Below are positions 3,005 through 58,777 of a DNA stretch of 64,000 nt, piece by piece; the stretch's first letter is position 1, and the number at the start of each line of letters is the position of its first letter. The stretch comes from Dehalococcoidia bacterium. GTDB taxonomy: Bacteria > Chloroflexota > Dehalococcoidia > UBA2979. The translations under genes were made by a program, and so were the position numbers. The DNA lies in NCBI GenBank assembly GCA_964291495.2, contig OZ219871.1:448001-512000 (forward strand), given 5' to 3'. Under the pieces are notes generated by a model that was given only the letters and a program-made list of their open reading frames with translations, was not told the origin of the DNA and ran no database searches.

Positions 3005-3162
3005 CGATCTACCGTACGGCGCGACTCTTGAAGGGGCGAGGGCGTCCGCCGCTCGGGCCTCGGCGCACGCGGGTCTTGCCCTGAACGGCGCGGTGCGCCA
3101 GCATCGTGGCCGTCGCCGAGTGGATTCGGGCAGGGACCACTCCCCCGGCAGCGGAGGAATGC

Positions 3163-4431
3163 ATGACCTCGAGGCGTGAAGTCTCCGCGCCCAACCCCGC
3201 TGCGGCGGGGGGGCGCGACGAGGCGATGGCCGAGGAGCTCTGGCGGCGCGCTCGTACGTCCGGCATGACTCGCCGCCGCTTCCTGGAACTGATGGCGGCC
3301 GGCGGCGCCGCCGCGGTGCTGGTGGCCTGCATCGACCTCGAAGGCGGCATGGACGAGGAGCCCGACGAGCCCGCGCACTGGTTCAAGGACACCGAGCCGT
3401 TCATCGAGCACGCCGACACGAGCCTCGAGGCGCGCCTTGAACTGATGGACGAGGTGATCACCCCGGCCCGGCTGTTCTTCGTGCGGAACAACTCATCGTC
3501 GAGCCTCGATGTGGACGCAGGGGACTGGCGGCTGTCGATCGAGGGCGACGCCATCGACAGCCCGATCGAGCTGAGCTACGAGGAGATCCGCCGCCTTCCC
3601 TCGCGCACGTTCGTCTCCTACCTCGAGTGCGCGGGCAACCAGCGCGCGATGTTCGAGCGGCTGGAGGGCTGGCTGACGACTGGCTCCCAGTGGACCACCG
3701 GGGGCGTCTCCAACGGCGAGTGGACCGGGGTGTCCCTGCGCGATGTCCTGACGCTGGCGGGGATCCGCGACGATGCCGTCTGCGTGATGCTGGTCGGCCT
3801 CGATAGCGAGGCTCCGGAGGGCGGCTTCCGGCGCGTGATGCCGGTCGAGAAGGCGCTGCACCCGGACACGATCCTCGCCTACGAGCTGAACGGCGAGGCG
3901 CTCCCGAAGGACCACGGCTTCCCGCTGCGCGCCATCGCGCCGGGCTGGGTCGGCGCAACCAACATCAAGTGGCTCGGCCGCATCGTCGTCTCGCGCGAGC
4001 AGCTCTGGACGCGCAACAACACCACCCACTACGTGCTGATCGGCACCCGCTACGAGCCCGAGGGCGAGGCGCGGGGTGAGATCGCCGAGGAGCAGAACAT
4101 CAAGAGCGCCCTCGCGCTGCCCTGGCCCGCCGAGCTGTCGGCCGGCGTCCAGCGCCTGCACGGCTACGCCCACTCGCCCGGCGGCCCGATCGAGCGCGTC
4201 GAGTGGAGCACGGACGGCGGCGCGAACTGGAGCGAGGCGGACGTGCTGGGGCCGCAGGTCGACTACTCGTGGGCGATGTTCGAGTTCGAGTGGGACGCCG
4301 AGCCGGGTGAGCACACGATCATGACCCGCGCGACGGACGCCTCGGGCGAGACGCAGCCCGAGGAAGTGCCGTTCAACGACAAGGGCTACCTCTTCAACCA
4401 GCCCCTCCCGCACCCGATCACGGTGACGTAG
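3163..4431 (+). CDS. sulfite oxidase family molybdopterin enzyme with Tat/lipoprotein signal
   Basis: TRRRFL twin-Arg, VAC lipobox, FFVRN, LECAGN Mo-ligating Cys, DHGFPLR, IKWL, C-terminal dimerisation domain; start uncertain (3106/3163/3226). Confidence 0.88.
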   Translation: MTSRREVSAPNPAAAGGRDEAMAEELWRRARTSGMTRRRFLELMAAGGAAAVLVACIDLEGGMDEEPDEPAHWFKDTEPFIEHADTSLEARLELMDEVITPARLFFVRNNSSSSLDVDAGDWRLSIEGDAIDSPIELSYEEIRRLPSRTFVSYLECAGNQRAMFERLEGWLTTGSQWTTGGVSNGEWTGVSLRDVLTLAGIRDDAVCVMLVGLDSEAPEGGFRRVMPVEKALHPDTILAYELNGEALPKDHGFPLRAIAPGWVGATNIKWLGRIVVSREQLWTRNNTTHYVLIGTRYEPEGEARGEIAEEQNIKSALALPWPAELSAGVQRLHGYAHSPGGPIERVEWSTDGGANWSEADVLGPQVDYSWAMFEFEWDAEPGEHTIMTRATDASGETQPEEVPFNDKGYLFNQPLPHPITVT

Positions 4432-5215
4432 CCGGCTCGCGCTCGCCGTCGTCCTGCGCGATCCCCGCCGCATCGAGGCGTGCGTGCAAGCGTCTCAGTT
4501 CGTCCAGCACCTCGTCGGACGCTGGACCGCGGACCGGGTGCTCTGACTCGAACAAGAAGGCGGCGACGTTCGCGGTGAGCGCTGCAAAGGTGCCGATACC
4601 GACGATCATCAGCATCACGCCCACGCCGCGGCCCACCGCCGTAACGGGGACGGCGTCTCCGTAGCCCACCGTTGTCGCGGTTGCGATCGCCCACCAGAAC
4701 GCCGTATCGAGGCTGTCGATCTCGCCACTGCCAGAGCGCTCGGCGAAGTAGACCGCGATCGCGGAGGCTGTGAGGACGAGGCCCGCGAAGAGCAGCGATC
4801 CCTGCACACCTCGGCGGGCCAGGATCGCGCGCATCGCGTGTGCCGCACGTAGCGCGTACGCGAGCGCCCGCACCGCGCCAAGCACGCGCAGTGCGCCCGC
4901 GGATCGTGCGACGCGCAGCGGCCGCAGGAACGGCAGCACGACGATCAGCACGTCGAACCAGTGCCGCCGGAGGTACGTGAGCTTGCGGGGCGCGAGCCTC
5001 GTTCGAATCAGCAGATCGGCCGCGAAGACGCCCCAGATGAGCCAGTCGAGGGCGAAGATGACCCGCTCCTGGCCGGCGGACAGGTCGAGCACGAACGGCG
5101 AAAGAAAGAGCGGGATCGTGAGCAGCGCGAGGACGAGCAGCGGCACCTCGGTCGCGCGCTCGAATCGAGCGAGCGCTTCCAGTCGCCTCTGTTGATCCGC
5201 GGTCGTGGTGGTCAT
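4418..5215 (-). CDS. potassium channel protein
   Basis: TATTVGYGD selectivity filter; Arg-rich S4-like segment LRPLRVAR. Confidence 0.88.
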   Translation of the reverse strand: MTTTTADQQRRLEALARFERATEVPLLVLALLTIPLFLSPFVLDLSAGQERVIFALDWLIWGVFAADLLIRTRLAPRKLTYLRRHWFDVLIVVLPFLRPLRVARSAGALRVLGAVRALAYALRAAHAMRAILARRGVQGSLLFAGLVLTASAIAVYFAERSGSGEIDSLDTAFWWAIATATTVGYGDAVPVTAVGRGVGVMLMIVGIGTFAALTANVAAFLFESEHPVRGPASDEVLDELRRLHARLDAAGIAQDDGEREPATSP

Positions 5216-5230
5216 GGGGGTCCGCAGCCC

Positions 5231-6187
5231 CTACAGCACGGCCAGTGGGTTGACCGGCGATCCGGTGCCGCCCCAGATGATCAGCGGGGCGCAGACGAAC
5301 TGGAACTCGTGGCGGCCCAGCTCCGCGCAGGCCACGCCGACGGCCTCGAGGTTGGCGTTGTCGAGCAGCGGCAGCCCCATGTAGGGCAGGGCGATCTGGT
5401 GGATCGCGCCGCCGCTGCCCTCGAAGCCCTGCCCCGCCGCCTCCTGCAAGTCCCAGACGAGGATCGACGCGTCGTACTCGTAGAGAAACTCGATCGCCGA
5501 GGCGTGCACGCCGGGCCGGGGCGGCGCGCCCGGAACGGTGATGCTGCCGCCCTCGCTCGGCGCGTCGAGCGCGCCGCTCTGCAGCGCGCGCGACACCGCG
5601 TCCGCGCCGGATCGGATCAGCACCGCGTCGCCCGATCGCGGCTCGACGCCCTGCGCACGCGCGCAGTCCTCGAGCTCCCAGCCGTGCACGGGCTCCTCGT
5701 AGCTGACGTGCTCGACGCCGCGGTAGCGGGGGATGTCGTAGAGCACCCCGCGCGTGACGATGCCGTCGCGCCAGTGCTCCACGGATCCGCTCTTCGCGCC
5801 CGTCACCGTCACCAGCGAGGCGGGCCGGCCGTTGTAGAGCAGCGGCTCCTCGTCGTCGGTGAAGACGTGGCAGTGCGCGTCGACGTGCGTGTTGGTGAGG
5901 CCGTGGTAGTTGATCGCGAAGAAGTCCCAGGCGATGCCTGCGTGCCAGCGCAGGTAGTGCGAGACCGGGAACGGGTTGCGCGGCCCGGGCCGCGTGTCGA
6001 GGGAGTTGGCGAGCGAGACCGCCCTGCCCGCCTGCACGAGGCTCGCCGCGTGTGCGCGCACCTCGGGCGTGATGTGGTTGAGCGTGCCCAGCTGGTCGTC
6101 GTCGCCCCAGCGCCCCCAGTTGCTGTAGCGCTGGCGGTAGGCGAAGAAGTCTTCCTTCGTCGGCGGCGTGCGATCTGCGAGTCCCAT
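5231..6187 (-). CDS. cyclase family (kynurenine formamidase-like) metal-dependent hydrolase
   Basis: NWGRWGDDDQLGTLN, THVDAHCH, GGTGSPVNPLAV. Confidence 0.88.
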   Translation of the reverse strand: MGLADRTPPTKEDFFAYRQRYSNWGRWGDDDQLGTLNHITPEVRAHAASLVQAGRAVSLANSLDTRPGPRNPFPVSHYLRWHAGIAWDFFAINYHGLTNTHVDAHCHVFTDDEEPLLYNGRPASLVTVTGAKSGSVEHWRDGIVTRGVLYDIPRYRGVEHVSYEEPVHGWELEDCARAQGVEPRSGDAVLIRSGADAVSRALQSGALDAPSEGGSITVPGAPPRPGVHASAIEFLYEYDASILVWDLQEAAGQGFEGSGGAIHQIALPYMGLPLLDNANLEAVGVACAELGRHEFQFVCAPLIIWGGTGSPVNPLAVL

Positions 6188-6362
6188 GCGGCCCTCCCGC
6201 TGCTCCGCCGGCGCGCCCGTGCGGCCCGCCGGCGCCTCGGCGCGGATCGTAGCAGGCGGCGCGGACGGCTAGAATGACGCCCGCCGCGAGGCGCTTTGAC
6301 GCCGCCACGAGGCGACGCGAGACTTGGTCCGCACCGCGGCGCTGCGGGTGGGGGTGAGGCCG

Positions 6363-6689
6363 GTGAGCGGGCCCGAAGGCGACCGTCCAGAGGACCAGGC
6401 CGACGCGACCCCCGAGGCCGTCGACGCCGACGAGGACGTCCGCTACTTCTTCGACGAGTCGCTGATGGGCAGGCCCTGCACCTGCGAGGGCGGCGCACAG
6501 ATCGAGGGTACCGACTACGCCGGCCGCGTCACCTACCGGGGCGTGGCCACCGGCCGCCGCTTCGAGCAGGGCGACCCGCCCTGGCGCTGGCTGGAACTCG
6601 CCGGACGCAGCATCGACGATCACAGCGGACAGGGCGCGCAGCTCGTCTGGTGCGAGGAGAGCTTCGTCTTCTTCGACGACGAGGAGTAG
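6363..6689 (+). CDS. small acidic hypothetical protein
   Basis: coding-like codon usage; GTG start behind GGTGAGG; upstream of etfB. Confidence 0.6.
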   Translation: MSGPEGDRPEDQADATPEAVDADEDVRYFFDESLMGRPCTCEGGAQIEGTDYAGRVTYRGVATGRRFEQGDPPWRWLELAGRSIDDHSGQGAQLVWCEESFVFFDDEE

Positions 6690-6732
6690 GCGCGCAGACC
6701 ACATACGCACCGACGCGACCGAAGGAGGCCGC

Positions 6733-7530
6733 ATGCACATCGTGATCTGCGTCAAGCAGGTCGTCGACCCGGACGGCGTCAACAGCTACGCGCTGTGGGG
6801 CCAGCTGGAGGTCGACGAGAGCGGACGGGCGTTCAGCACCCGGCTGCCGCTGATCATCAACGCCTACGACGACCAGGCGATCGAGGCGGCGCTGCGCCTC
6901 CGCGACGCCGACGACGAGGTGACGATCACCGCCATCTCCGTCGGGGGCGAGGACGTCGACCAGGTGCTCAAGCACTGCGTCGCGATGGGCTGCAACGAGA
7001 TCATCCGCATCGACGACCCGGAGGCGGGGGCCGGCAACGCGCTGCGCACCGCGCGTCTGCTCGCCGCGCAGATCGCCGAGCTGGGCGACGTCGACCTCGT
7101 GCTCTGCGGGCGGCAGTCCTCGGACTACGACCAGGGCACGGTGCCGGGCGCGCTGGCGGAGCTGCTCGGCTTCGCCTGCGTCACGCTCGGCTTCGGCGTG
7201 ACCGCCGAGGACGGGCGCCTGCGCGTGCAGCGCGCGACGCCGCTTGGCGAGGAGCTCGTCTCCGTCGCGACGCCCGCCGTGGTGACGATCAGCAACGAGC
7301 TCGGCGTGCCGCGCTACCCCACGAGCCGCGGCATGATCGCCGCCCGTCGCCGCCCGCCGACCGTGCGCGCCGCCGCCGACCTCGATGCCGGCGAGGGCGC
7401 GCACGGCGTCGAGCTGGTCGAGCTGTTCGTACCGGACGTGCAGGGCCACTGCGAGGTGATCGAGGGCGCCACGCCTGCCGAGCAGGCCGCGGCCCTGTTG
7501 GCGAAGCTGGAAGAGGAGGGCGTGCTGTGA
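6733..7530 (+). CDS. etfB: electron transfer flavoprotein beta subunit
   Basis: [41 protein letters not shown]. Confidence 0.92.
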
Positions 7531-47599: not shown

Positions 47600-47814
47600 G
47601 GGACCGTTGCGAAACCCTCTCCTCAGGGCAGCGAGCGCATCCCCTCCGGTCCCCTCTCCCCGAGGGAGAGGGTTAGGGTGAGGGAGGATCCGCTCTCTGA
47701 GTTTCGTTGCGCCTTCGGGGCTCTCGGAGGGGCGCGCGAGTCCTCCCCCTCACCCCCGCCCTCTCCCCAGGGAGAGGGGGCCGGATCGGGCTTGTGGGAG
47801 TTCGCAGGGGGCTC
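47600..47814. mobile_element. degenerate copy of the MITE-like element
   Basis: aligns by eye with 54303-54519; left end GGGACCGTTGCGAAAC; internal inverted REP pair. Confidence 0.65.
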
Positions 47815-49311: not shown

Positions 49312-50430
49312 ATGACTGCGAATTCCGGTCAGGCGAACCCGCTGCACACCCGGCTCTGCGAGGAGTACGGCTGCGAGTACCCGATCGTCGCCTTCTCGCA
49401 CACGCGCGACGTGGTCGTGGCGGCCTCGAACGCGGGCGCGATCGGCATGCTCGGCTGCAGCACGCACACGATGGACGAGCTGCGCGCCGACCTCGCCTGG
49501 ATCAAGGAGCGCGTCGGCGACCGGCCCTTCGGCTGCGACATCACCCTGCCCTCCTCCTATGTGCAGGGGAACCGCGAGGAGCTGGAGGAGCAGATCCCCG
49601 AGGTGCATCGCGAGTTCGTCGAGGACCTGATGCGCGAGCACGAGATCCCGGAGCCAAAGACGCCGGGGCCGTGGGGCACGACGCGGCTGCGCAGCCTGGC
49701 CGACACGCGCGCCAAGCTCGAGCTGTTCATGAACGAGCGGATCCCCATCTTCGCCTCCGGGATGGGCAGCCCCGCCTTCGTGCTCGACGAGATGCACGAC
49801 GCCGGGGTGAAGGTCTGGGGCCTAATCGGCCTCGGCCGCCAGGCCGCACGCGAGCTGGAGGCGGGGATCGACCTGATCATCGCCCAGGGGCAGGACTCCG
49901 GCGGACACACCGGCCGCATCGGCACCTTCTCGATCGTCCCCGAGGTGGCGGAGCTCGCGAGGGCGTACGACACGCCGATCGTCGCCGCCGGAGGCGTGAC
50001 GACGGGTCGGCACCTCGTTGCGGCGCTCTCTCTTGGGGCGGTCGGCGTCTGGACCGGCACGCTCTGGCTGGCCACGCACGAGAACGGGCACCTGGAACCG
50101 TGGCAGAAGCAGAAGGTCGTCGAGGCGCGCACGCAGGACGCCTGGGTGACGACGGCGCTGGACGGCAAGCGCGCCCGAGGGCTGCGCGACTCCTTCGTCG
50201 AGGCGTGGGAGCAGCCCGAGGCGCCACGCACGCTGCCGATGCCGCTGCAGGGGCTGCTCGTCGGCAAGCTGCTCCAGTCGGCCGAGGACTGGGACCGCCG
50301 CGACTGGATTCGCACCCCCGGCGGGCAGGGCGTCGGGTTCGTGCGCGAGATCAAGCCGACCCGGCAGGTGATCTTCGACGTGATGGAAGAGGCCTGGGAC
50401 GCCCTCGACGCCGTCCAGCTCGCCGAGTAG
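49312..50430 (+). CDS. nitronate monooxygenase/enoyl-reductase-like FMN protein
   Basis: YPIVAFSH, SNAGAIG, AQGQDSGGHTG, AAGGV, WTGTLWL. Confidence 0.88.
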   Translation: MTANSGQANPLHTRLCEEYGCEYPIVAFSHTRDVVVAASNAGAIGMLGCSTHTMDELRADLAWIKERVGDRPFGCDITLPSSYVQGNREELEEQIPEVHREFVEDLMREHEIPEPKTPGPWGTTRLRSLADTRAKLELFMNERIPIFASGMGSPAFVLDEMHDAGVKVWGLIGLGRQAARELEAGIDLIIAQGQDSGGHTGRIGTFSIVPEVAELARAYDTPIVAAGGVTTGRHLVAALSLGAVGVWTGTLWLATHENGHLEPWQKQKVVEARTQDAWVTTALDGKRARGLRDSFVEAWEQPEAPRTLPMPLQGLLVGKLLQSAEDWDRRDWIRTPGGQGVGFVREIKPTRQVIFDVMEEAWDALDAVQLAE

Positions 50431-50449: not shown

Positions 50450-52879
50450 ATGGCGCAACCCGGCGAGGGCGGCGCACTGTCCGGCCTGCGCGTGCTCAAC
50501 CTCGGAAGCTCGCTCTCCGCGGCCTGGTGCGCGCGGACGCTCGCCGAGTACGGCGCGGAGGCCACGATCGTCGAGCCCCCCGGCGGCGCTGCGCTGCGGA
50601 GCCTCGGCCCGCACGGCCCCGAGGGCGAAAGCACCCCCGCCGCCTACGCGCTCGCCAACCAGCGATCGCTCGTCCTCGATCTCACGCTCGCGGCGGACCG
50701 CGCCGCGCTGCGCCGCCTCGCCTCGGACAGCGACGTGGTCATCGAGAGCCGCGCGCCCGGCGCCCTCGAGGAAGCGGGCGCGAGCTTCGAGGAGCTGCGC
50801 GCCGAGCGGCCGGGGCTGATCCTCGCGGCGCTGACGCCGCACGGGCTGATCGGGCCGCGCGCAGGGCAGCCGGGCAACGACCTGACAGCCTTCGCGCGCT
50901 CCGGCTGGGCGGCGATCAACGGTCGCGCCGAGCCGCCGCTCAAGGGCGCACGCCACGTCGCCTCGCTCTACGCCGGACTGACGGGCGCGGCGGCGGTGCT
51001 GGCGGCGCTGCGCGAGCGCGCGGCGAGCGGGCGCGGGCAGCTCGTCGACCTCGCGGAGACGGACGCCCTCGCCGCGACGTTCGCCTCGGTGGCCTCGCAC
51101 GCGCAGTACCAGGGCGAGCTGGAGCAGCGCAACGTCGTCTGGTTCCGCGACCCGCTGCGCGGGCCGCTGCCCGCCGCCGACGGCTACTTCCACCTCATGC
51201 TCGGCCGCAGCGACTTCTTCCGGCTGGCGCTGCACATCCTCGGGCTGCCGGAGCTGGCCGAGGACACGCGCTTCGAGGGCCGCAGCGCGAGGCTCAAGCT
51301 GGCGGACGAGTGGGTCCCCGCCGTGTGGGAGCGCGTCGCCGCGCGCAAGAAGCTCGAGCTGTTCGAGGCGCTGACGACGGCGCGCGTCGTCGCCGGGCCG
51401 GTGCTGGACGCGGCGGAGCTCGCCACGAACGAGCACCTCGAGGCGCGCGGCTTCTTCGTGCGCCCGGAGGGCGGCGGACCAAGAATGCCGGGCCCGGCCG
51501 CGCGGCTCTCGGCGACGCCTCCCCGTCTGCGCCGTGCGGCTCCGGCGCCCGGCGCAGACGGCGCCTCGGTGCTCGGAGAGGAGCGCGAGCGCCGGGCGGC
51601 CACACCGCCGCCCACCGGCGGCGCGCGATCGAGGCCGCTCGAGGGCGTGCGGGCGCTGGCGCTCACGCAGGTCTGGGCGGGCGCGCACTGCGCGCAGCAC
51701 CTCGCGCTACTCGGGGCGGAGGTGATCAAGGTCGAGGCGCGCCGCCGTCCCGACACCTGGCGCGGCGGCTACGAGATGCGGATCCTCAGCGCGCTGCGGG
51801 ACCGCCCGACGGCGCGGCGCGGCTGGAACTGCCACCCCTCCTTCAACTCCGGCAACCTCAACCAGCTCGGCCTCACGCTCGACCTGCAACGGCCCGAGGG
51901 CGTCCGGCTCCTGCGCCGCCTGCTGCGCTCGACCGACGTCGTCGTCGAGAACTTCACGCCGCGCGTCCTCGGCAGCCTCGGGGTCGGCTACGAGGCGATG
52001 CGCGAGGAGCGGCCGGACGTGATCCTCTGCTCGATCAGCGGCTTCGGCGCGAGCGGGCCGTACCGCGACCGCCCCTCGAACGGCGGGACGATCGAGCCCG
52101 CGTCCGGCATGTCCTCGCTGCTCGGCTTCCCCGGCGGACCGCCGCGCAACTCCGGCGCGACCTTCCCCGACCCGCTCGCGGCGATGACCGCGACAACCGC
52201 GATCCTCGCCGCGCTCGAACACCGCGCCCGCACGGGCGAGGGCCAGCACATCGACGTCTCGATGCAAGAGGCGACGCTCGCGCTGGTCGGCGACGCGGCG
52301 CTGGAGCACGAGCTGACCGGGCGCACGCCGGGGCCGCAGGGCAACCGCCACCCGGACATTGCGCCGCACGGCATCTACCCCGCGAGCGGCGAGGACCGCT
52401 GGATCGCCCTCGCCGCCGACGACGAGGCGCAGTGGCGGCGGCTCGGCGCGGTCGCCGCGCGCCCCGATTGGGCGGCCGACCCGCGCTACGCGACGAACGG
52501 CGCCCGCAAGGCCAACGAGGACGCCCTCGACGCCGAGATCGCCGGGTGGACCCGCACGCAGCCACGCGACGCGCTGGCCGATCGTCTCGCGGCGGCCGGG
52601 CTACCCGCCGCGCCGGTGCTGAACCCCGGCGAGCTGCCCTCGGACGCCTCGTTCCGCGAGCGCGGCGTCGTCGCCGAGGTCGAGCACCCGGAGGCCGGCG
52701 TGTGGCCCTACGTCGTCGTCCCCTACCGCCTCACCGAGACCCCGTTGCGCGTGACCGCGCCCGCCCCCTGCCTCGGCGAGCACTCCGCCGAGGTGCTCAC
52801 CCGCCTCGCCGGCGTCGACGCCGCCGGCTACGAGGAGCTCGTGCGCCTCGGAATCAGCGGCGAGGATCCGCCGGAGTAG
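50450..52879 (+). CDS. family III CoA-transferase with two fused domains
   Basis: two CaiB-type repeats (LSGLRVL..., PLEGVRAL...LGAEVIKVE, ENFTP, FPDP, LGEHS). Confidence 0.9.
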   Translation: MAQPGEGGALSGLRVLNLGSSLSAAWCARTLAEYGAEATIVEPPGGAALRSLGPHGPEGESTPAAYALANQRSLVLDLTLAADRAALRRLASDSDVVIESRAPGALEEAGASFEELRAERPGLILAALTPHGLIGPRAGQPGNDLTAFARSGWAAINGRAEPPLKGARHVASLYAGLTGAAAVLAALRERAASGRGQLVDLAETDALAATFASVASHAQYQGELEQRNVVWFRDPLRGPLPAADGYFHLMLGRSDFFRLALHILGLPELAEDTRFEGRSARLKLADEWVPAVWERVAARKKLELFEALTTARVVAGPVLDAAELATNEHLEARGFFVRPEGGGPRMPGPAARLSATPPRLRRAAPAPGADGASVLGEERERRAATPPPTGGARSRPLEGVRALALTQVWAGAHCAQHLALLGAEVIKVEARRRPDTWRGGYEMRILSALRDRPTARRGWNCHPSFNSGNLNQLGLTLDLQRPEGVRLLRRLLRSTDVVVENFTPRVLGSLGVGYEAMREERPDVILCSISGFGASGPYRDRPSNGGTIEPASGMSSLLGFPGGPPRNSGATFPDPLAAMTATTAILAALEHRARTGEGQHIDVSMQEATLALVGDAALEHELTGRTPGPQGNRHPDIAPHGIYPASGEDRWIALAADDEAQWRRLGAVAARPDWAADPRYATNGARKANEDALDAEIAGWTRTQPRDALADRLAAAGLPAAPVLNPGELPSDASFRERGVVAEVEHPEAGVWPYVVVPYRLTETPLRVTAPAPCLGEHSAEVLTRLAGVDAAGYEELVRLGISGEDPPE

Positions 52880-52885
52880 CGACCG

Positions 52886-54196
52886 CTACCGGCTCGCGGC
52901 CTGCGGGGGGCGCGCGTAGGCGGAGGACTGGAAGGCGCGGATCGCGTCCACGTGCACCACGCGGACCGCGGGTGGGGCCTCGACCGTGCCGGTGTAGTCC
53001 ACGATCGTGCGCACGCCGGCGGCGGCGAGGCGGTCCGCGACGCCCTGCGCGTAGCGCGGCGGCACGGCGACGATCGCCGCCGCGATGCCCGAGGCGGCGA
53101 GGGCGTCCTCGAGGCCGTCGACGGACTCGACGGTGAGGCCGCGGATCGCGTGGCCGATCTGGCGCGGGTCGGCGTCGAAGGCGGCGGTGATCTCGTAACC
53201 GGCTTGCGCGAGCTGCTCGCTCGCCAGCGTGGGGCGGCCGAGGCGGCCGCAACCAACGAGCGCGAGCGGGGCCAGCGGCTCGCCCTCGAACGCCGCACGG
53301 AACGCCTCGGTGATGGCCCGCGGGCCGCGTTGTTCCTCGATCAGCCGGCCCTCGCGCACGAGGTAGTGGAGGTGGGCGTTGGTCTCCCAGATCGCCATGT
53401 TGCGCGTGTCGGCGTTCATCTCCTGCCACGTGCCCACGTTCCAGCTGATGCGCGCCGCGATGCCCGCGGCGCTGCGCGGGCCGTCCGCGGCGGCCGCGAG
53501 GATCTCCTCGTTGCGCTCGTGGTGGTGCTCGATGATCTCGTCCACCCGCGCCCGCAGATCCTCGAACGAGTACTCGTGGGCGGGGTGGACCATCGCCACG
53601 TTGAGGTCGGCGAGCGCGCGATGGCCATCGATGAAGTCCTGCAACGGGTTGCCCGTGTCGGTCGGGTAGCGGCTGACGTTCGGGGTGGTGACGGGCAGCA
53701 CGTGGTCGCCGGAGAAGAGCAGGCGGCGCCTGCGGTCATGGACGCAGGTGTGGCCGGGCGTGTGTCCGGGCGTCCAGATCGTCCACAGGCCGGAGCCGGG
53801 CACGAGCTCCTCGCCGCCCTCGAGGAGCACGTCCACCTCGGGAGGCCCGGCGTCGGCGTCGAAGGTCAGCACGTAGGGGTTGGTGGCGTCGGCGCGGTGG
53901 ATGGCGATCGGTGCGCCGGTGAACTCGCGCGCCTTCGCGGCGAGGCCGAAGTGATCGTTGTGGCCGTGCGTGACGACGATCAGCGAGAAGTCGCGCGGGG
54001 CGAGGCCCGCCTCCGGGATCTGGCGGCGCAGCGCCTCGAGGCCCTGATCGCTCTCCATCCCGGCGTCGACCATGACCCAGCCCTCGGAGGTCTCGATGGC
54101 GTAGACGAGCGTGTAGCGCTCGCGGCTGCTGGGCCGGATCTGGTTCGGCGGCATGGGGATGCGGAACTGGTAGACGCCCTCGGCCGCTGCCTGCAC
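52886..54196 (-). CDS. MBL-fold hydrolase + winged helix + Rex-type NAD(H)-binding domain fusion
   Basis: THGHNDH, TPGHTPGH, SGDH, PAHE; C-terminal LVGCGRLG, AAFDADPRQIG, VAVP..AQGVADRL. Confidence 0.85.
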   Translation of the reverse strand: MQAAAEGVYQFRIPMPPNQIRPSSRERYTLVYAIETSEGWVMVDAGMESDQGLEALRRQIPEAGLAPRDFSLIVVTHGHNDHFGLAAKAREFTGAPIAIHRADATNPYVLTFDADAGPPEVDVLLEGGEELVPGSGLWTIWTPGHTPGHTCVHDRRRRLLFSGDHVLPVTTPNVSRYPTDTGNPLQDFIDGHRALADLNVAMVHPAHEYSFEDLRARVDEIIEHHHERNEEILAAAADGPRSAAGIAARISWNVGTWQEMNADTRNMAIWETNAHLHYLVREGRLIEEQRGPRAITEAFRAAFEGEPLAPLALVGCGRLGRPTLASEQLAQAGYEITAAFDADPRQIGHAIRGLTVESVDGLEDALAASGIAAAIVAVPPRYAQGVADRLAAAGVRTIVDYTGTVEAPPAVRVVHVDAIRAFQSSAYARPPQAASR

Positions 54197-54302
54197 GCGC
54201 TGCCTCCCACCCGGCTCGGTCCGTGCCTGGCAAGCCTAGCCGTCACGCGCAGTCGAAGGCCACGGCTGGTGCGAGAACGAATCCGGTCGCGTATTCCAAA
54301 CC

Positions 54303-54519
54303 GAGACCTTCGCGTAACCCTCACCTCGGGGCAGCGAGCGCATCCCCTCCGGTCCCCTCTCCCCGAGGGAGAGGGTGAGGGTGAGGGAGGAGCCGCCCTC
54401 TGGAGTTTCGTTGCGCCGTCGGGGCTTCGAAGGGGCGCGGGAGTCCTCCCCCTCACCCCCGCCCTCTCCCCGAGGGAGAGGGGGCCGGATCGGGCTTGTG
54501 GGAGTTTCGCAAGGGTCTC
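54303..54519. mobile_element. MITE-like element with 16-bp imperfect TIRs and AAACC target-site duplication
   Basis: GAGACCTTCGCGTAAC ... GTTTCGCAAGGGTCTC (13/16 complementary); AAACC at 54298-54302 and 54520-54524. Confidence 0.75.
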
Positions 54520-54550
54520 AAACCGCGGGTCGAACGACCCCATTTCACAG

Positions 54551-54566
54551 TGTGATTCAGGTCACA
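54551..54566. promoter_or_regulatory. TGTGA-N6-TCACA palindrome (CRP/FNR- or Rex-type site)
   Basis: TGTGA TTCAGG TCACA; candidate -10 TATCAT at 54612-54617. Confidence 0.6.
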
Positions 54567-54640
54567 AGGCATGGCCCCGACGCGTCGCGGCAAGGGGCGT
54601 CGCATCGGTGCTATCATCCGCCCGCGCGAGGGGGTGAGGC

Positions 54641-55102
54641 GTGCGCATCGACGGCGAGCACCGTTTCGCGCTTCCCCGATCCGTGATGTGGGAGCACCTG
54701 CTCGACCCCGCCTCGCTGCAAGGCGCGATCCCCGGCTGCACCGCGTTCGACGAGGTCGCCCCCGATACCTGGGAACTCACCGCCCAGGTCGGCGTCGGGC
54801 CGGTGCGCGGAACCTTCACGGGCCGCGTCGAACTGCGCGACCGGCAGCCCGAGTCGCGCTACACGCTGATCGCCTCGGGACAGGGGCGGCCCGGTGGCGG
54901 CCAGGGCGAGGCCGTGATCGACCTGACGGACGACGGAGAAGGCACGCACCTGCGCTACGAGGCGGACGTGACGGTCCGGGGCGCGATCGCTCGCGTCGGC
55001 GGCCGCTTGCTGACGGCCTCGGCGCGCACGATGGCGCGCCAGTTCTTCGATGCGATCGAGCAAGAGGCAAAGACGGCGACAGAGAGGAGTGCGGCGACAT
55101 GA
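54641..55102 (+). CDS. coxG: CoxG/SRPBCC family protein
   Basis: WEHLLDP..L...[24 protein letters not shown]. Confidence 0.88.
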
Positions 55103-55566
55103 GCGTACCGATTTCGGTAACCGTGAACGGACGGGCCCACGAACTGGAAGTGGAGCCCCGCATGCTGCTGGTGCACCTCCTGCGGGAGGAGCTGAACCTC
55201 ACCGGCACGCATGTGGGCTGCGACACGAGCCAGTGCGGGGCCTGCACCGTGATCGTCGATGGCTCGTCCGCCAAGTCCTGCACCGTGCTGGCGGTGCAGG
55301 CCGACGGCGCGTCCATCACCACGATCGAGGGCCTCGCCCAGGACGGCGAACTGCACCCGCTGCAGGAGGCGTTCTGGGACGAGCACGGCCTGCAGTGCGG
55401 CTATTGCACGCCGGGCATGATTATGTCCGGTATTGACCTCCTCGAGCGGCACCCCGACCCGTCCGAGGCCGAGATCCGGCGCGGGTTGGACGGCAACCTC
55501 TGCCGCTGCACCGGCTACGAGCACATCGTGAACGCCATGCAGGCCGCGGCGGGAGGTGCATCATGA
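55099..55566 (+). CDS. coxS: 2Fe-2S small subunit of CODH/xanthine dehydrogenase family
   Basis: [29 protein letters not shown]. Confidence 0.92.
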
Positions 55567-57935
55567 CCATGGCCGCAACCCCAGGCCAGCTTGTCGGACA
55601 GCGCGTCCGGCGGCGCGAGGACCCGCGCCTGGTGCAGGGCCACGGCACCTACGTCGACGACGTGAAGCTGCCGGGCATGCTCCACCTCGCCTTCCGGCGC
55701 AGCGACGTGGCGCACGGCATCATCCGCTCGATCGACACCAGCGCCGCCGAGGCGATGGATGGCGTCGAGGCGGTCTACACCGGCGCCCAGATCGCCGACA
55801 TAGTGCCGCCGATGCCCGTCGCGACGCCGTTCCCGGCGCCCGACCACCACTCGGTGGCCCCGGAGCGCGTCCGCTACGTCGGCGAGCCCATCGCCGTTGT
55901 CGTGGCCACCGACCGCTACCTGGCGGCCGACGCCGCCGACGCGATCGAGGTCGACATCGAGGAACTGCCCGCGGTGATCGACCCCGAGCGGGCGATGGCC
56001 GGTGAGCCGACCACGATCTACGACGACTTCGAGAACAACCTCGCCGTCCCGATGGCCCCCGCCGGCACCGGCGTGGGCGCCGACGGCAGCATCGAGGACA
56101 ACTCGGCGCTCGACGAGGCGTTCGAGAAGGCCGACGTGGTGATCTCGCAGCGGATGATGAACCAGCGCCTGGTCCCGAACGCGATGGAGCCGCGCGGCAT
56201 CCTCGCGCACTACGAGCCGGGCAAGGAGGAACTGACCGCCTGGTCGACGACGCAGAACCCGCATATCGCGCGCACGCTCCTGGCGGCGATCCTCGGGATG
56301 GGCCAGCACCAGGTGCGCGTCATCGCCCCGGACGTGGGCGGCGGCTTCGGCAGCAAGATCAACGTCTACGGCGAGGACTTCGCCGCGGCCGCGATCTCGC
56401 GCGACCTCGGCCGCCCCGTGAAGTGGATCGAGGACCGCTCCGAGGCGTTCATGACCACGATCCACGGCCGCGACGTGATCGGCTACATCGACCTCGCCGC
56501 GACGGGTGAGGGCAAGGTGACGGCCGTCAAGATGCGGCTCATCGCCGACATCGGCGCCTACGAGATGGTGCTGACGGCGGCGATCCCCACCCTGGTGGCC
56601 TTCATGATCAGCGGCGTCTATGACATCCCCGTCGTGCGCGCCGAGCTGACCGAGGTCTTCACCAACAAGATGCCGACCGACGCCTACCGCGGCGCCGGAC
56701 GGCCCGAGGGCATCTACTTCCTCGAGCGCGCCATGGACATGCTGGCGTCCGAGCTGGGGATGGACCCCGCCGACGTGCGGCGCGTGAACTTCATCCAGCC
56801 GGACCAGTTCCCGTACACCACCGCCGGGGGCATGGTCTACGACTCCGGTGAGTACGAGCGCCTGCTCGACCAGGCCCTCGAGAACGCCGGCTGGGAGCAG
56901 ATGAAGGCCGACCGCGACGCCGCGCGCGCCGAGGGTCGGATCGTCGGGCTCGGCATGTCGTTCTACACGGAGATCTGCGGCTTCGGCCCCTCGGCGGCGA
57001 TGCCGACCGTCGGACTCTGGGAGCACGCGAGCGTAAGCGTGGAGCGCGACGGCAAGGTGATCGCCTCGAGCGGCGCGTCCTCGCACGGCCAGGGCCACGA
57101 GACGACGTTCGCGCAGATGCTGGCGGATGACCTCGGTATCCCGATGGATGACATCTCGATCATCCATGGCGACACCGGGCAAGTCCGCGAGGGCACGGGC
57201 ACCTTCGGCAGCCGCTCGCAGGTGGTGGGCGGCACCGCGCTGCTCATGGCGAGCGGCAAGGTCAAGGACAAGATGCGCAAGTTCGCCGCGCAGATGCTCG
57301 AGACCCAGCCCGCCGACCTCTCGTTCCGCGAAGGGATGATCGGACCGACGGGGCAGGAGGACACCGGCGTCGCCTTCGCCGAGGTCGCCGGCTTCGCCTA
57401 CATCCCGATCCCGCTCCCGCCGGACACCGAGCCCGGCCTGAGCGAGGAGGCGTTCTGGGAGCCCGAGGGCTTCACCTGGCCCTTCGGCTGCTACATCTCG
57501 CAGGTCGAGATCGACCGCGACACGGGCGAGCTGGAGCTGCAGCGCTTCGTCGGCGTGGACGACTGCGGCAACGTGGTCAACCCGCTGATCGTCGCCGGGC
57601 AGATCCACGGCGGCATCGCCCAGGGCGTCGGCCAGGCGATGACCGAGGAGGCGGTCTATGACGAGGAGAGCGGCCAGCTGCTGAGCGCCTCGTTCATGGA
57701 CTACGCGATCCCGCGCGCGCGCGACCTGCCACGCTTCGAGCTGGACCACACCGTGACCCCCTCCCCGCTCAACCCGATGGGCGTGAAGGGCATCGGCGAG
57801 GCCGGCACGATCGGGTCGACTCCATCGATCGTGAACGCCGCCGTCGACGCGCTCAGCGGGCACGGCGTCGAGCACATCGACATGATGCTGCGTCCGGAGA
57901 AGCTCTGGCGTCTGATCCAGGGAGGCGACGCATGA
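55563..57935 (+). CDS. coxL: molybdopterin large subunit, form II CoxL-like
   Basis: [36 protein letters not shown]. Confidence 0.88.
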
Positions 57936-58777
57936 TCCCCTCAGCGTTCGATTACCAGCGCGCCGGCTCCGTCGAGGAGGCGATCGCGCTCAAGCAGGGA
58001 GCAGAGGGCGACGCCCGCTTCATCGCCGGCGGTCACAGCCTGATCCCGCTGATGAAGCTGCGCCTCGCCGAGCCCTCGCTGCTGATCGACATCAGCGGCA
58101 TCCCCGGGCTCTCCGGGGTGAGCGAGGACGGCGGGCGGATCTCGATCGGCGCGCTCACCACCCACGCCGAGTTGGAGGACGACGCGGTGCTGCTCGCCTC
58201 CGCGCCCGTCGTCGCCGAGGCGGCGGGCGAGATCGGCGACCAGCAGGTGCGCAACCGCGGCACCATCGGCGGCAGCCTCGCGCACGCCGACCCGGCGTCC
58301 GACCTGCCGGCGGTGGTCGTCGCGCTCGACGCCTCGATCCACATCGCCGGCTCGGGCGGCGAGCGCACGGTCGCCGCGGGCGACTTCTTCAGCGGGCTGT
58401 TCGAGGTCGACCTGACGGAGGACGAGCTGATCACCTCGGTCAGCTTCGACGCCCCCTCGCAGGCGGCCTATGCGAAGCTCCGCCACCCGGCCTCGCACTT
58501 CGCGATCGTCGGCGTTGCGGCCTCGCTGACCGTCGAGGGCGGCGTCTGCACCGGCGCCCGCGTCGCCGTGACGGGCGCCTCGACGCACGCGCAGCGGCTG
58601 GGGGCGGTCGAGGAGGCGCTGACCGGCTCGTCGCTCGACGACGACGCGATCGCAGCCGCCTCCGCGGCAGCCGCCGTGGACGACGTGAACGCGGACCTGG
58701 CGGGCTCGGAGGAGTACCGGCGGGCGATGACGCAGGTCTTCACCGGCCGCGCGATCGCCGCCGCCGCCGGCCGCTAG
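57932..58777 (+). CDS. coxM: FAD-binding medium subunit
   Basis: IAGGHSLIPLMKLR, QVRNRGTIGGS, ADPASD, SEEYRR. Confidence 0.92.
   Translation: MIPSAFDYQRAGSVEEAIALKQGAEGDARFIAGGHSLIPLMKLRLAEPSLLIDISGIPGLSGVSEDGGRISIGALTTHAELEDDAVLLASAPVVAEAAGEIGDQQVRNRGTIGGSLAHADPASDLPAVVVALDASIHIAGSGGERTVAAGDFFSGLFEVDLTEDELITSVSFDAPSQAAYAKLRHPASHFAIVGVAASLTVEGGVCTGARVAVTGASTHAQRLGAVEEALTGSSLDDDAIAAASAAAAVDDVNADLAGSEEYRRAMTQVFTGRAIAAAAGR

Follow-up and report, generated by a model that had tools for sequence, protein, structure and literature searches.

A 436-aa protein encoded in the window (the 64,000-nt stretch of DNA analysed here) joins an MBL-fold metallo-hydrolase to the C-terminal half of Rex. Comparative sequence evidence indicates that the fusion is real and ancient, that selection has maintained it and that its family is very small, with members found so far only in Dehalococcoidia/Chloroflexota metagenome-assembled genomes. 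Alignment to solved and canonical Rex proteins shows that the fusion retains the ADP-binding residues of Rex, and that it has lost the nicotinamide-stacking tyrosine and the Rex DNA-binding domain. We tentatively favor a reading, in which our confidence falls a little short of even, that the protein is an enzyme to which a dinucleotide-binding module from Rex is coupled, and that its hydrolase activity would respond to the NAD(H) pool.

Gene anatomy and the hydrolase half

The first-pass annotation placed one continuous ORF at 52886..54196 without giving its strand. ORF reading confirms a single uninterrupted frame of 436 aa on the minus strand. The strings quoted in that annotation are all present: THGHNDH spans residues 76–82, SAAGIAARISW...HLHYLVREGRL spans residues 242–285, and LVGCGRLG, AAFDADPRQIG, IVAVP and VRVVHVD...FQSSAY fall in the last third of the protein. 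The features referred to below are as follows.

52886..54196, minus strand: fusion coding sequence, 436 codons (stop 52888-52886, GTG start 54194-54196)
54203..54208, minus strand: Shine-Dalgarno-like GGGAGG, 6 nt 5′ of the GTG and kept in relatives (upstream-region alignment)
53561..54196, minus strand: MBL-fold catalytic core, residues 1–212 (Pfam Lactamase_B at 27–207; fold matches to TTHA1429 and others)
53951..53968, minus strand: HxHxDH metal motif (H77, H79, D81, H82), invariant in 21/21 fused proteins and 99/99 unfused relatives
53327..53560, minus strand: winged-helix-like helical domain, residues 213–290, found C-terminally in this MBL subfamily and ending in a wing hairpin (predicted secondary structure; residue conservation; aligned jointly with the core to 2zo4/5i0p at Z 29.7)
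52889..53326, minus strand: Rex-derived part, residues 291–436 (sequence matches, structure matches and junction alignment)
53237..53254, minus strand: GxGxLG dinucleotide-binding loop, G315–G320; G315, G317, L319 and G320 occur in 24/24 fused proteins and 11/11 canonical Rex
53159..53179, minus strand: FDADPRQ motif, residues 340–346 (alignment to solved Rex and conservation)
53219..53221, minus strand: codon of S326, the position of the Rex nicotinamide-stacking tyrosine (family alignment column)
52913..52948, minus strand: C-terminal helix region, residues 417–428 (D417, A421, Q423, S424), counterpart of the domain-swapped last Rex helix

Near-identical contigs in a metatranscriptome (X2) cover 53426-54298 and 52800-52982, with DNA carry-over in the library possible; contigs are absent over 52983-53425, a gap from which we draw no conclusion.

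The N-terminal half matches Pfam Lactamase_B (PF00753) over residues 27–207 (E 1.5e-28, 100.5 bits against a cut-off of 22.7). Farther along the core, downstream of the HxHxDH motif, lie the remaining metal ligands H149, D164 and H207, and the metal site that had been called intact is so throughout, all seven residues being present in 21/21 fused proteins and 99/99 unfused relatives. This half has the alpha-beta/beta-alpha fold, and many MBL structures match it at Z 20–30. The closest are TTHA1429 (2zo4; Foldseek E 9e-23) and the Burkholderia MBLs 5i0p, 5u8o and 6ao1, with Z scores of 29.4–29.7 over 271–286 residues in a rigid alignment that takes in both core and helical domain; LACTB2 (4ad9) follows at Z 25.6 and the thioesterase PqsE at Z ∼23. 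The family profile matches TTHA1429-type structures at E 2e-36 to 4e-30, and NCBIfam NF053820 (Strvi_7410 family MBL-fold hydrolase) scores 186.9 bits against a cut-off of 525, which marks the protein as a relative rather than a member. From the alignments and structural models, this half is predicted to be a di-metal MBL-fold hydrolase of the TTHA1429/LACTB2-like subfamily, and it is complete, with the winged-helix-like C-terminal domain native to that subfamily. Neither named relative fixes the substrate of the fusion, since TTHA1429 is described as without an assigned function (PMC6267482) and LACTB2, an endoribonuclease, as having a C-terminal domain without an established role (PMC4770246).

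Within the helical domain, R217, H224, H225, R228, W252 and H275 are invariant in 99/99 unfused relatives and E271 is present in 98/99. Because stand-alone enzymes share them, these conserved residues are features of the enzyme. Unfused relatives finish directly after the wing hairpin; in the fusions the hairpin leads on to Rex sequence, beginning with the second wing strand and the linker helix and continuing with the Rossmann dinucleotide-binding domain and the C-terminal helix. The two winged-helix-like domains are joined at their wing hairpins, which puts the hydrolase domain in the place of the Rex DNA-binding domain. This gives structural support to the earlier suggestion that the hydrolase's own wHTH-like domain had taken that place.

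The Rex-derived half and its dinucleotide site

The C-terminal half matches Pfam CoA_binding (PF02629), the family that also holds the Rex C-domain, over residues 312–402 (E 1.5e-14, 54.9 bits against a cut-off of 22.3). Nine NCBIfam Rex models match residues ∼295–429 at model positions ∼72–205. All nine score below their cut-offs, the best being NF003995 (E 1.1e-26, 93.7 bits against 126), whose shortfall is attributable to the presence of only the C-terminal half of Rex. Residues 303–436 alone match eight distinct solved sequences, all eight of them Rex, and positions 293–429 of the family profile match residues 71–205 of Rex 2vt2 at E 3.3e-25. The start that the first-pass annotation had put at about 53320 corresponds to residue 293, in agreement with the start of that profile match. 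The Lactamase_B, CoA_binding and Rex matches are all far beyond chance.

Structure comparison leads to the same assignment. The full-length model (pLDDT 87.6, pTM 0.82) aligns through its C-terminal half with 18 Rex entries at Z 16.2–18.8 and rmsd 1.4–3.4 Å over 106–118 residues; the CoA-binding domain of succinyl-CoA synthetase alpha comes next, at Z ∼12. Foldseek E values are 9e-11 for Rex and ∼1e-5 for CoA-binding domains (2e-5 for succinyl-CoA synthetase). Rex is thus ahead of the CoA-binding enzymes by both Z and E, and kinship closer to those enzymes was not found. Pfam, NCBIfam, solved-structure and profile matches therefore all agree that this domain tracks the Rex C-terminus, as first proposed. 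The Rex winged-helix DNA-binding domain (PF06971, Put_DNA-bind_N) gave no match in the fusion at E up to 1, and a separate Rex in the same genome carries it at E 8.3e-20.

The residues of the ADP site, mapped to solved Rex, are kept: V314, G315, G317, L319, G320, D341, Q346, L362, V378, P379, V386 and D417. D341, at the end of strand 2, is present in 24/24 fused proteins and corresponds to Asp115 of Thermotoga maritima Rex, which is described as binding the ADP ribose of NAD (PMC8836258). The C-terminal helix is predicted to remain helical with its D417/A421/Q423/S424 motif conserved; D417 occurs in 21/24 fused proteins and Q423 in 22/24, and both are present in 11/11 canonical Rex. The nicotinamide side of the pocket is different. 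In accounts of canonical Rex, a tyrosine from the opposite subunit (Tyr98 in T. aquaticus, Tyr100 in T. maritima) stacks on the nicotinamide and relays NADH, hydrogen-bonding the C-terminal helix when NADH binds (PMC8836258, PMC8063818). The equivalent column holds tyrosine in 11/11 canonical Chloroflexota Rex, a biased sample picked through a shared motif, and in 0/24 fused proteins, where it reads S10, I6, N3, Q2, V1, L1 and A1. The following loop, Y-P-G-F-x-P-E in 11/11 canonical Rex, is replaced in the fused proteins, as are the Trp that precedes strand 1 and the Pro that follows D417. These replacements show that the Rex element that tells NADH from NAD+ has been remodelled, and with the stacking tyrosine gone from every fused protein a canonical NADH/NAD+ switch is not assured.

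Distribution, origin and selection

Among the matches listed (120 proteins) there are at least 19 full-length fused clusters of 428–457 aa and 49–93% identity, all with PF00753 and PF02629. The best 150 of 1.84 billion 50%-identity representatives include two full-length fused proteins and two fragments that run across the junction. At the DNA level, we found the gene in 12 distinct Dehalococcoidia/Chloroflexi genomes (the window and L178-L188). Searches for related arrangements were less productive. A metagenome scan with MBL motifs gave at least 80 loci, none of those listed being fused, which says little. An atlas search with the Rex-type domain found only short Rex C-domain clusters. Other partners for this domain were absent from 26 matches in proteins of 239–763 aa (10 MBL fusions and 16 ordinary Rex), and none was found in proteins of 764–2180 aa, though the latter is weak evidence. 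One candidate split form (G195), where the match ran across a TAG, was rejected; the MBL gene there ends normally and the next ORF is unrelated. The claim that no protein of this architecture had been described stands for the literature, in which our search found no paper on it, and falls for databases, which already contain the family and include one JGI automatic name that gives both halves.

Phylogenetic analysis places the Rex parts of 23/23 fused proteins in one clade (support 100/99), and 22/22 again when long branches are removed. The clade is nested among Chloroflexota Rex, and branches inside it are long. Of the 21 MBL halves from fused proteins, 20 group in a single clade, and keeping all 21 together gives a tree that is better by 18.6 lnL (AU p 0.835). 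Both halves are thus compatible with one common origin of the fusion. Over 54 pairs the MBL core has a median dN/dS of 0.137, the helical domain 0.241 and the Rex part 0.208, values that show purifying selection on both halves, the Rex part included.

These data also bear on whether the fusion is an artefact, either a chimeric assembly, a read-through of two genes or a dying pseudogene. The source genome is a metagenome assembly of 3.08 Mb with 93.7% completeness and 3.68% contamination, and damaged copies do exist. In one of the 12 genomes, L186 (whose contig is that of L008), codon 306 is a TAA in frame, and exactly at the junction ∼60 nt are scrambled and the glycine loop is disrupted. One protein cluster (P0016) represents a frameshifted copy. 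Against this, the ORF is intact in nine of the 12 genomes, and two more copies at contig edges keep the frame. Moreover, an independent contig from another study (X4 record 27) covers 52989-54239 with 69 substitutions and no gaps, bridging the junction. The first-pass annotation had itself named a misassembled junction, a singleton and a decaying Rex part as ways in which the proposal could fail. Misassembly is ruled out by the gap-free contig and by recurrence in other genomes; the 12 genomes and the clusters, which diverge down to 49% identity, show that the gene is no singleton; and the dN/dS of 0.21 on the Rex part, with its invariant ligand-site residues, speaks against decay. Judged by this comparative evidence, the artefact reading is refuted for the family as a whole, and we regard it as extremely improbable for the gene in the window.

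Enzyme, scaffold or regulator

The protein might instead be a transcription regulator, in which the winged-helix-like domain of the MBL half binds DNA and the MBL core serves as a ligand-sensing or signal-destroying input. In topology the helical domain does stand where Rex has its DNA-binding domain, and Foldseek alignments with Rex chains frequently run on through it (200–221 columns); these extended alignments, however, have an rmsd of ∼12 Å, and rigid-body alignment covers the Rossmann part only. The domain has a mean net charge of −1.7 (range −10 to +3, n = 21), compared with +3.9 for Rex DNA-binding domains (n = 11), and it shares its conserved residues with 99/99 unfused enzymes, while the intact metal site speaks for catalysis. 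A perfect palindrome, TGTGA-N6-TCACA (TGTGATTCAGGTCACA, 54551-54566), lies 355 bp upstream of the start and was considered as an operator. We rejected it: it adjoins a mobile repeat insert, occurs once in the 3.08 Mb genome (our own chance estimate is about 0.4), is missing from the corresponding position of all 13 related upstream regions and is absent from the other loci compared. Neither the alignment of those 13 regions nor the genome count revealed a conserved operator-like site near the gene. DNA binding is unlikely, given that the helical domain is an integral, non-basic part of the enzyme and that no operator is conserved. The earlier suggestion of a regulator with a catalytic input thus loses most of its ground, and we consider a transcription regulator improbable.

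A more serious competitor is an enzyme whose Rex-derived domain is redox-blind. The domain would then be a dimerisation scaffold with a structural nucleotide, or an anchor by which the substrate's ADP moiety is held (as in an acyl-CoA thioester or an NAD-derived or ADP-ribosylated compound), in a constitutive two-domain enzyme. Such a role would fit the loss of the nicotinamide-reading tyrosine and its loop in 24/24 fused proteins with retention of the ADP-binding residues, and would also fit the somewhat faster evolution of the Rex part relative to the MBL core and the long branches within the fused clade. Placement in Pfam CoA_binding, the succinyl-CoA synthetase domains as the next structural relatives after Rex, and PqsE among the relatives of the N-terminal half point the same way. 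However, Rex matches are much stronger than those to CoA-binding domains, D341 is the very Rex residue that binds the ADP ribose of NAD, and the C-terminal helix and D417, signal-relaying elements of Rex, are still conserved. There is also no evidence linking the enzyme to CoA esters: the neighboring downstream CoA-transferase is convergent and varies among relatives. In L178-L180 an insert of 4.2 kb lies between the gene and the divergent coxGSLM-like cluster, and in same-genus genomes that lack the fusion this cluster has another neighbor. As both neighbors vary among genomes, the neighborhood gives no functional clue, and we rejected gene context as a guide to the substrate. On balance we think a redox-blind domain rather unlikely, while giving it appreciable weight.

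We therefore return to an enzyme coupled to a dinucleotide-binding Rex module as our preferred reading. The protein would act as an enzyme rather than repress genes by binding DNA. As in Rex, a dimer may form through the Rossmann domains and C-terminal helices, and occupancy of the dinucleotide site might be relayed through the C-terminal helix to the helical domain packed against it. As that domain belongs to the hydrolase and carries invariant His, Arg, Trp and Glu residues, hydrolase activity could in this way be tuned to the NAD(H) pool. The NADH-regulated hydrolase of the first-pass annotation is still the best guess, weakened by the tyrosine that 11/11 canonical Rex have and 24/24 fused proteins lack. 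Because every member lacks this residue, the read-out is probably unlike the canonical NADH-versus-NAD+ switch, and may follow dinucleotide occupancy or concentration rather than the NADH/NAD+ ratio. Coupling of a Rex module to a foreign domain appears feasible in light of SoNar, in which the T-Rex NADH-binding domain, with its DNA-binding domain truncated, is described as still reporting NADH:NAD+ through the fused domain (PMC6747460). A more specific version of the model is that NAD(H) occupancy of a Rex-type dimer gates the metallo-hydrolase post-translationally, as the first natural Rex module on an enzyme, with the winged-helix-like lid of the hydrolase doing mechanically what the DNA-binding domain does in Rex, and the remodelled, Tyr-less pocket providing a new read-out. 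We consider this version, taken as a whole, rather unlikely.

What we hypothesize, then, is NAD(H) gating of the fusion hydrolase in a tiny family confined to uncultured Chloroflexota. To our knowledge, Rex has been described only as a transcription factor; should the sensor half still signal when grafted onto an enzyme, NAD(H) sensing by Rex modules would not be limited to gene regulation. We likewise know of no function for the TTHA1429-like hydrolase subfamily, for which an NAD(H) regulatory link, if true, would be the first functional clue. The fusion would also be a compact template from nature for enzymes under redox or dinucleotide control, a natural counterpart of SoNar-type sensors. 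Because its two winged-helix-like domains are joined at equivalent points, it cleanly illustrates one domain standing in for a topologically similar one, and the family-wide loss of the tyrosine is a natural experiment on the residues needed for NADH/NAD+ discrimination.

Several known systems resemble parts of this protein. TTHA1429, 5i0p, 5u8o, 6ao1 and LACTB2 have the same arrangement of MBL core and C-terminal helical domain, but TTHA1429-type proteins stop after the wing hairpin, where the fusion runs on into Rex. Residues ∼291–428 of the fusion correspond to residues ∼70–205 of Rex (solved for Thermus, Bacillus subtilis, Thermotoga maritima, Thermoanaerobacter and Streptococcus agalactiae), and the two share the linker helix, the GxGxLG Rossmann fold, the ADP-ribose Asp, the AVP strand and the C-terminal helix with its A-L/F-Q-S motif. 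Unlike Rex, the fusion has no PF06971 domain and is joined to an enzyme rather than to a DNA reader. KTN/RCK domains of K+ transporters are NAD(H)-binding Rossmann dimers that control an attached or associated effector; they belong to an unrelated Rossmann subfamily with another type of effector, and the likeness is one of concept only. Further parallels are the engineered NADH sensors SoNar, RexYFP, Frex and Peredox, in which the Rex nucleotide-binding domain passes a conformational change to a foreign domain. These sensors are artificial and keep the tyrosine, whereas the natural fusion has an enzyme as partner and is joined on the N-terminal side through a winged-helix-like domain. The segment of Rex that it retains is essentially the same as that in SoNar.

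Domain composition and the junction

A metallo-beta-lactamase (MBL) fold hydrolase is joined to the C-terminal part of the NAD(H) sensor Rex in a single gene:

52886..54196, minus strand: fused open reading frame (ORF), one frame of 436 codons with a GTG start
6 nt upstream of the fused-gene start, minus strand: Shine-Dalgarno-like GGGAGG, kept in relatives

All of the strings quoted in the first-pass annotation are present, and its reading of an MBL/Rex fusion in one ORF agrees with the Pfam, NCBIfam and solved-structure matches. Pfam places Lactamase_B at residues 27–207 (E 1.5e-28) and CoA_binding, a family that takes in the Rex C-domain, at residues 312–402 (E 1.5e-14). Nine NCBIfam Rex models match residues ∼295–429 at model positions ∼72–205, all under the curated cut-offs since the protein has just the C-terminal half of Rex. 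Over its N-terminal two thirds the protein is similar to the Strvi_7410 MBL family (186.9 bits; cut-off 525). Among solved structures, the first 290 positions of the family profile match TTHA1429 (2zo4, E 2e-36) and three Burkholderia MBL-fold proteins; positions 293–429 match residues 71–205 of Rex 2vt2 (E 3.3e-25). Residues 303–436 used alone match eight distinct solved sequences, every one a Rex.

A confident full-length structural model has a pLDDT of 87.6 and a pTM of 0.82. Its residues 1–290 superpose on TTHA1429 and the Burkholderia proteins with Z of 29.4–29.7 over 271–286 residues (rmsd 2.3–2.7 Å), on LACTB2 with Z of 25.6 and on the thioesterase PqsE with Z of ∼23. For the six closest structural relatives the aligned range, expressed as end points only, extends to ∼residue 430, a hint that the very C-terminal end of the Rex part packs at the site of those enzymes' last element. 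When residues 213–436 are modelled separately (pLDDT 88.7), Rex chains occupy Foldseek ranks 1–37 with E down to 9e-11, followed by succinyl-CoA synthetase at E ∼1e-5; rigid-body Z is 16.2–18.8 for 18 Rex entries versus ∼12 for succinyl-CoA synthetase. Rigid superposition of this model on Rex is limited to the Rossmann domain and the last helix; in the monomer model the helical domain of the hydrolase (residues 213–290) is oriented differently from the Rex DNA-binding domain.

In the alignment, 92 of 99 unfused homologues terminate at the equivalents of residues 297–307, directly after a β-hairpin that succeeds the long final helix in their C-terminal domain. In canonical Rex, the second strand of the protein's own wing leads into the linker helix. 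The fused proteins differ from both, as the MBL hairpin passes straight into the Rex wing-strand/linker-helix segment. The similarity is plain in more divergent members (database cluster P0022, GSVALLEELRPIVG, versus Chloroflexota Rex, YSVKYLLEELRQILG). The join thus sits at the same topological position in two winged-helix-like domains, which supports the earlier proposal that a domain native to the hydrolase took the place of the Rex DNA-binding domain. The sequence pattern and the predicted secondary structure suggest that the helical domain may be a true winged helix; the LACTB2 C-terminal domain is classified as one.

Distribution, integrity and ancestry of the fusion

Full-length fused forms make up 19 clusters (428–457 aa, 93 down to 49% identity) among the best 120 of 958 homologues, with stand-alone MBLs of ∼335 aa ranking beneath them. 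All 19 carry PF00753 and PF02629, and one bears an automatic JGI name naming both halves. When 1.84 billion 50%-identity representatives were searched exhaustively with a profile, the best 150 included only two full-length fused representatives (P0022 and P0122) and two junction-spanning fragments (P0142 and P0150), so the fused family is very small. A first genome scan returned at least two fused loci, and a scan seeded with the junction and the Rex part returned 11 (L178–L188). Together with the window these come from 12 different genomes, each labelled as a Dehalococcoidia or Chloroflexi MAG; L007, L008 and L167–L169 are duplicates of loci in this set. Within a 401-genome sample of the class, which takes in one unpublished genome (G244), 91 genomes have a match at E 1e-40 or better; four of these hold the fused form, each belonging to the window's genus (11 genomes in the sample), and the other 87 matches span the MBL part only.

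That the fused gene is an artefact or a pseudogene is highly improbable. Its recurrence in 12 genomes and 19 clusters disposes of the singleton that the first-pass annotation had allowed for. Nine of the 12 copies are intact and full-length, two end at contig edges with no internal stop in the remaining part, and one (L186) is interrupted. A misassembled junction, also considered earlier, is contradicted by a contig from another study (metagenome run X4, record 27), which spans 52989–54239 with 69 substitutions and no gaps and therefore bridges the junction in frame. Run X1 spans 52700–54332 with zero differences from the window and is probably its source sample. Close relatives occur in run X2 and in run X4, each labelled as sponge metagenome. 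Median Nei-Gojobori dN/dS comes to 0.137 (MBL core), 0.241 (helical domain) and 0.208 (Rex part) over 54 pairs from 11 coding sequences including L186, two of them identical and that pair removed by the dS filter; the last value indicates that the Rex part is maintained by selection rather than decaying.

The interrupted copy (L186 4469–5773, on the same contig as L008) has a ∼60 nt divergent stretch exactly at the junction, which brings an in-frame TAA (codon 306) and breaks up the glycine loop; the Rex-coding sequence further downstream is otherwise conserved. This lesion reflects either a local fault in the assembly or a recent inactivation by which a stand-alone MBL was recreated. Two database proteins are likewise damaged copies: P0016 shifts to an alternative frame after residue ∼245, and P0020 ends at 255 aa despite a long contig. 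Either sequencing or assembly errors or further inactivation would account for them.

By their Rex parts, all 23 fused proteins group in a single clade (bootstrap 100, SH-aLRT 99), which falls within Chloroflexota Rex when actinobacterial-type Rex serves as the outgroup, in a sample biased by the retrieval of 10 of the 11 Chloroflexota Rex rows via a shared AFDADPRQ motif. The clade holds without long-branch rows (22/22, support 100/99). In a quick tree of the MBL half, built from 21 fused and the first 70 of 99 unfused sequences, 20 fused sequences form a clade (SH-aLRT 98) with P0122 outside; constraining all 21 together gives a log-likelihood 18.6 higher (AU p 0.835). Both sequence trees are consistent with one fusion event, and the fusion is old, under selection and cleanly built. 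The genome also encodes a canonical 222-aa Rex with a PF06971 DNA-binding domain on another contig (L002 1450–2118, minus strand), which is 36% identical to the fused Rex part, versus 44–46% for other Chloroflexota Rex. This resident Rex is unusually divergent, with a long branch and VYDASEDEIG in place of the AFDADPRQVG of other Chloroflexota Rex and the fused proteins.

Genomic setting and DNA binding

The fused gene is its own transcription unit, with these features around it:

49312-50430: nitronate-monooxygenase-like gene, ahead of the CoA-transferase gene
50450-52879, plus strand: double CoA-transferase family III protein, 809 aa, two tandem domains (Pfam E 1.5e-182, two stretches)
54303-54510 and 47602-47802: dispersed G+C-rich repeat, ∼205 bp, with internal inverted repeats
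54551-54566: perfect palindrome TGTGA-N6-TCACA, TGTGATTCAGGTCACA, between the fused gene and coxG
54641-58777, plus strand: cox-like cluster for a CO dehydrogenase or another molybdenum hydroxylase, divergent from the fused gene, with genes of coxG, coxS (2Fe-2S), coxL (molybdopterin) and coxM (FAD) type

The CoA-transferase gene is convergent with the fused gene, their stop codons 6 bp apart. It lies beside the fused gene in three related loci and 3.5–5.6 kb off in three, and is swapped for a 34–35% identical one in three. The cox cluster adjoins the fused gene in six related loci and is ∼4.2 kb away in L178–L180, a count covering the loci other than L185 and L188. The insert in L178–L180 (about 3110–7364) ends in 300 bp that resemble the end of a coding region, then a G+C-rich hairpin. 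Five genomes of the same genus that lack the fused gene have a transporter-like ORF ahead of the cox cluster. With neighbours this variable, gene context yields no clue to the substrate. The dispersed repeat has ∼40 genome matches of 130 bp or more at 76–95% identity (68 matching pieces in total) and looks like a MITE-type element; its insertion in the 54197–54640 spacer doubles the upstream spacer of the fused gene (444 versus about 120–224 bp in relatives).

The palindrome has a CRP/FNR- or Rex-operator-like core and had been put forward as a target for EMSA. It occurs once in the 3.08 Mb genome (reversed control 0; by our own estimate ∼0.4 chance occurrences), is at the aligned site in none of 13 related upstream regions and adjoins a ∼225 bp insert of the dispersed repeat, and we set it aside as an operator. 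The protein itself has the features of a hydrolase. All 21 fused and all 99 unfused sequences have the metal ligands H77, H79, D81, H82, H149, D164 and H207. Helical-domain residues R217, H224, H225, R228, W252 and H275 occur in 99/99 unfused enzymes, and E271 in 98/99; being invariant or nearly so there, they are hydrolase features and not a DNA-reading surface, and plausibly line the substrate site. Net charge averages −1.7 in the fused helical domain (range −10 to +3, n = 21) versus +3.9 in Rex DNA-binding domains (range +1 to +6, n = 11). Sequence conservation and charge point to an enzyme that is unlikely to bind DNA, and leave little room for the earlier alternative of a DNA-binding regulator with a catalytic input.

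The Rex part as a putative dinucleotide sensor

Alignment to the cofactor contacts of T. maritima Rex listed in PMC8836258 indicates that the fused protein retains the residues that bind the ADP moiety (V314, the G315/G317/G320 loop, L319, D341, Q346, L362, V378, P379 and V386), as well as D417 at the start of the last helix. These residues are conserved across 24 fused sequences and in Rex, and a C-terminal-helix A-L/F-Q-S motif is common to both. In Rex, according to the same paper, a Tyr from the opposite subunit stacks on the nicotinamide and, with NADH bound, hydrogen-bonds the last-helix Asp; PMC8063818 calls this Tyr ‘highly conserved’. It is present in 11/11 canonical Chloroflexota Rex versus 0/24 fused proteins, where the column (S326 here) contains S in 10, I in six, N in three, Q in two, and V, L and A in one each. 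Replacements extend to the remainder of its loop (P-G-F-x-P-E), to the Trp ahead of strand 1 and to the Pro that follows D417. Thus, the pocket is retained, and the element that discriminates NADH from NAD+ is remodelled family-wide.

By analogy with Rex, we tentatively propose that the hydrolase would form a Rex-style dimer, that a dinucleotide would bind the Rossmann domain, and that the conserved last helix would relay binding to the helical domain and so modulate catalysis; this scheme, the likeliest of those considered, has somewhat less than an even chance. Because the Tyr is missing, it may be occupancy or concentration that sets the response, and not the NADH:NAD+ ratio. The main rival, a redox-blind Rex module that serves dimerisation or holds an ADP-containing substrate, would fit the same kept ADP site and lost Tyr, and we regard it as possible but doubtful.

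Full-text literature searches turned up no published account of a Rex sensor domain naturally fused to an enzyme, in line with the first-pass statement that no described protein is known to have this architecture, and word-based searches, within their limits, found no other fusion partners of the Rex-type domain. The MBL and Rex parts are both well known, and databases already hold the fused family under automatic names. A precedent by design is the engineered sensor SoNar, in which, according to PMC6747460, a Rex nucleotide-binding domain without its DNA-binding domain can drive a fused foreign domain.
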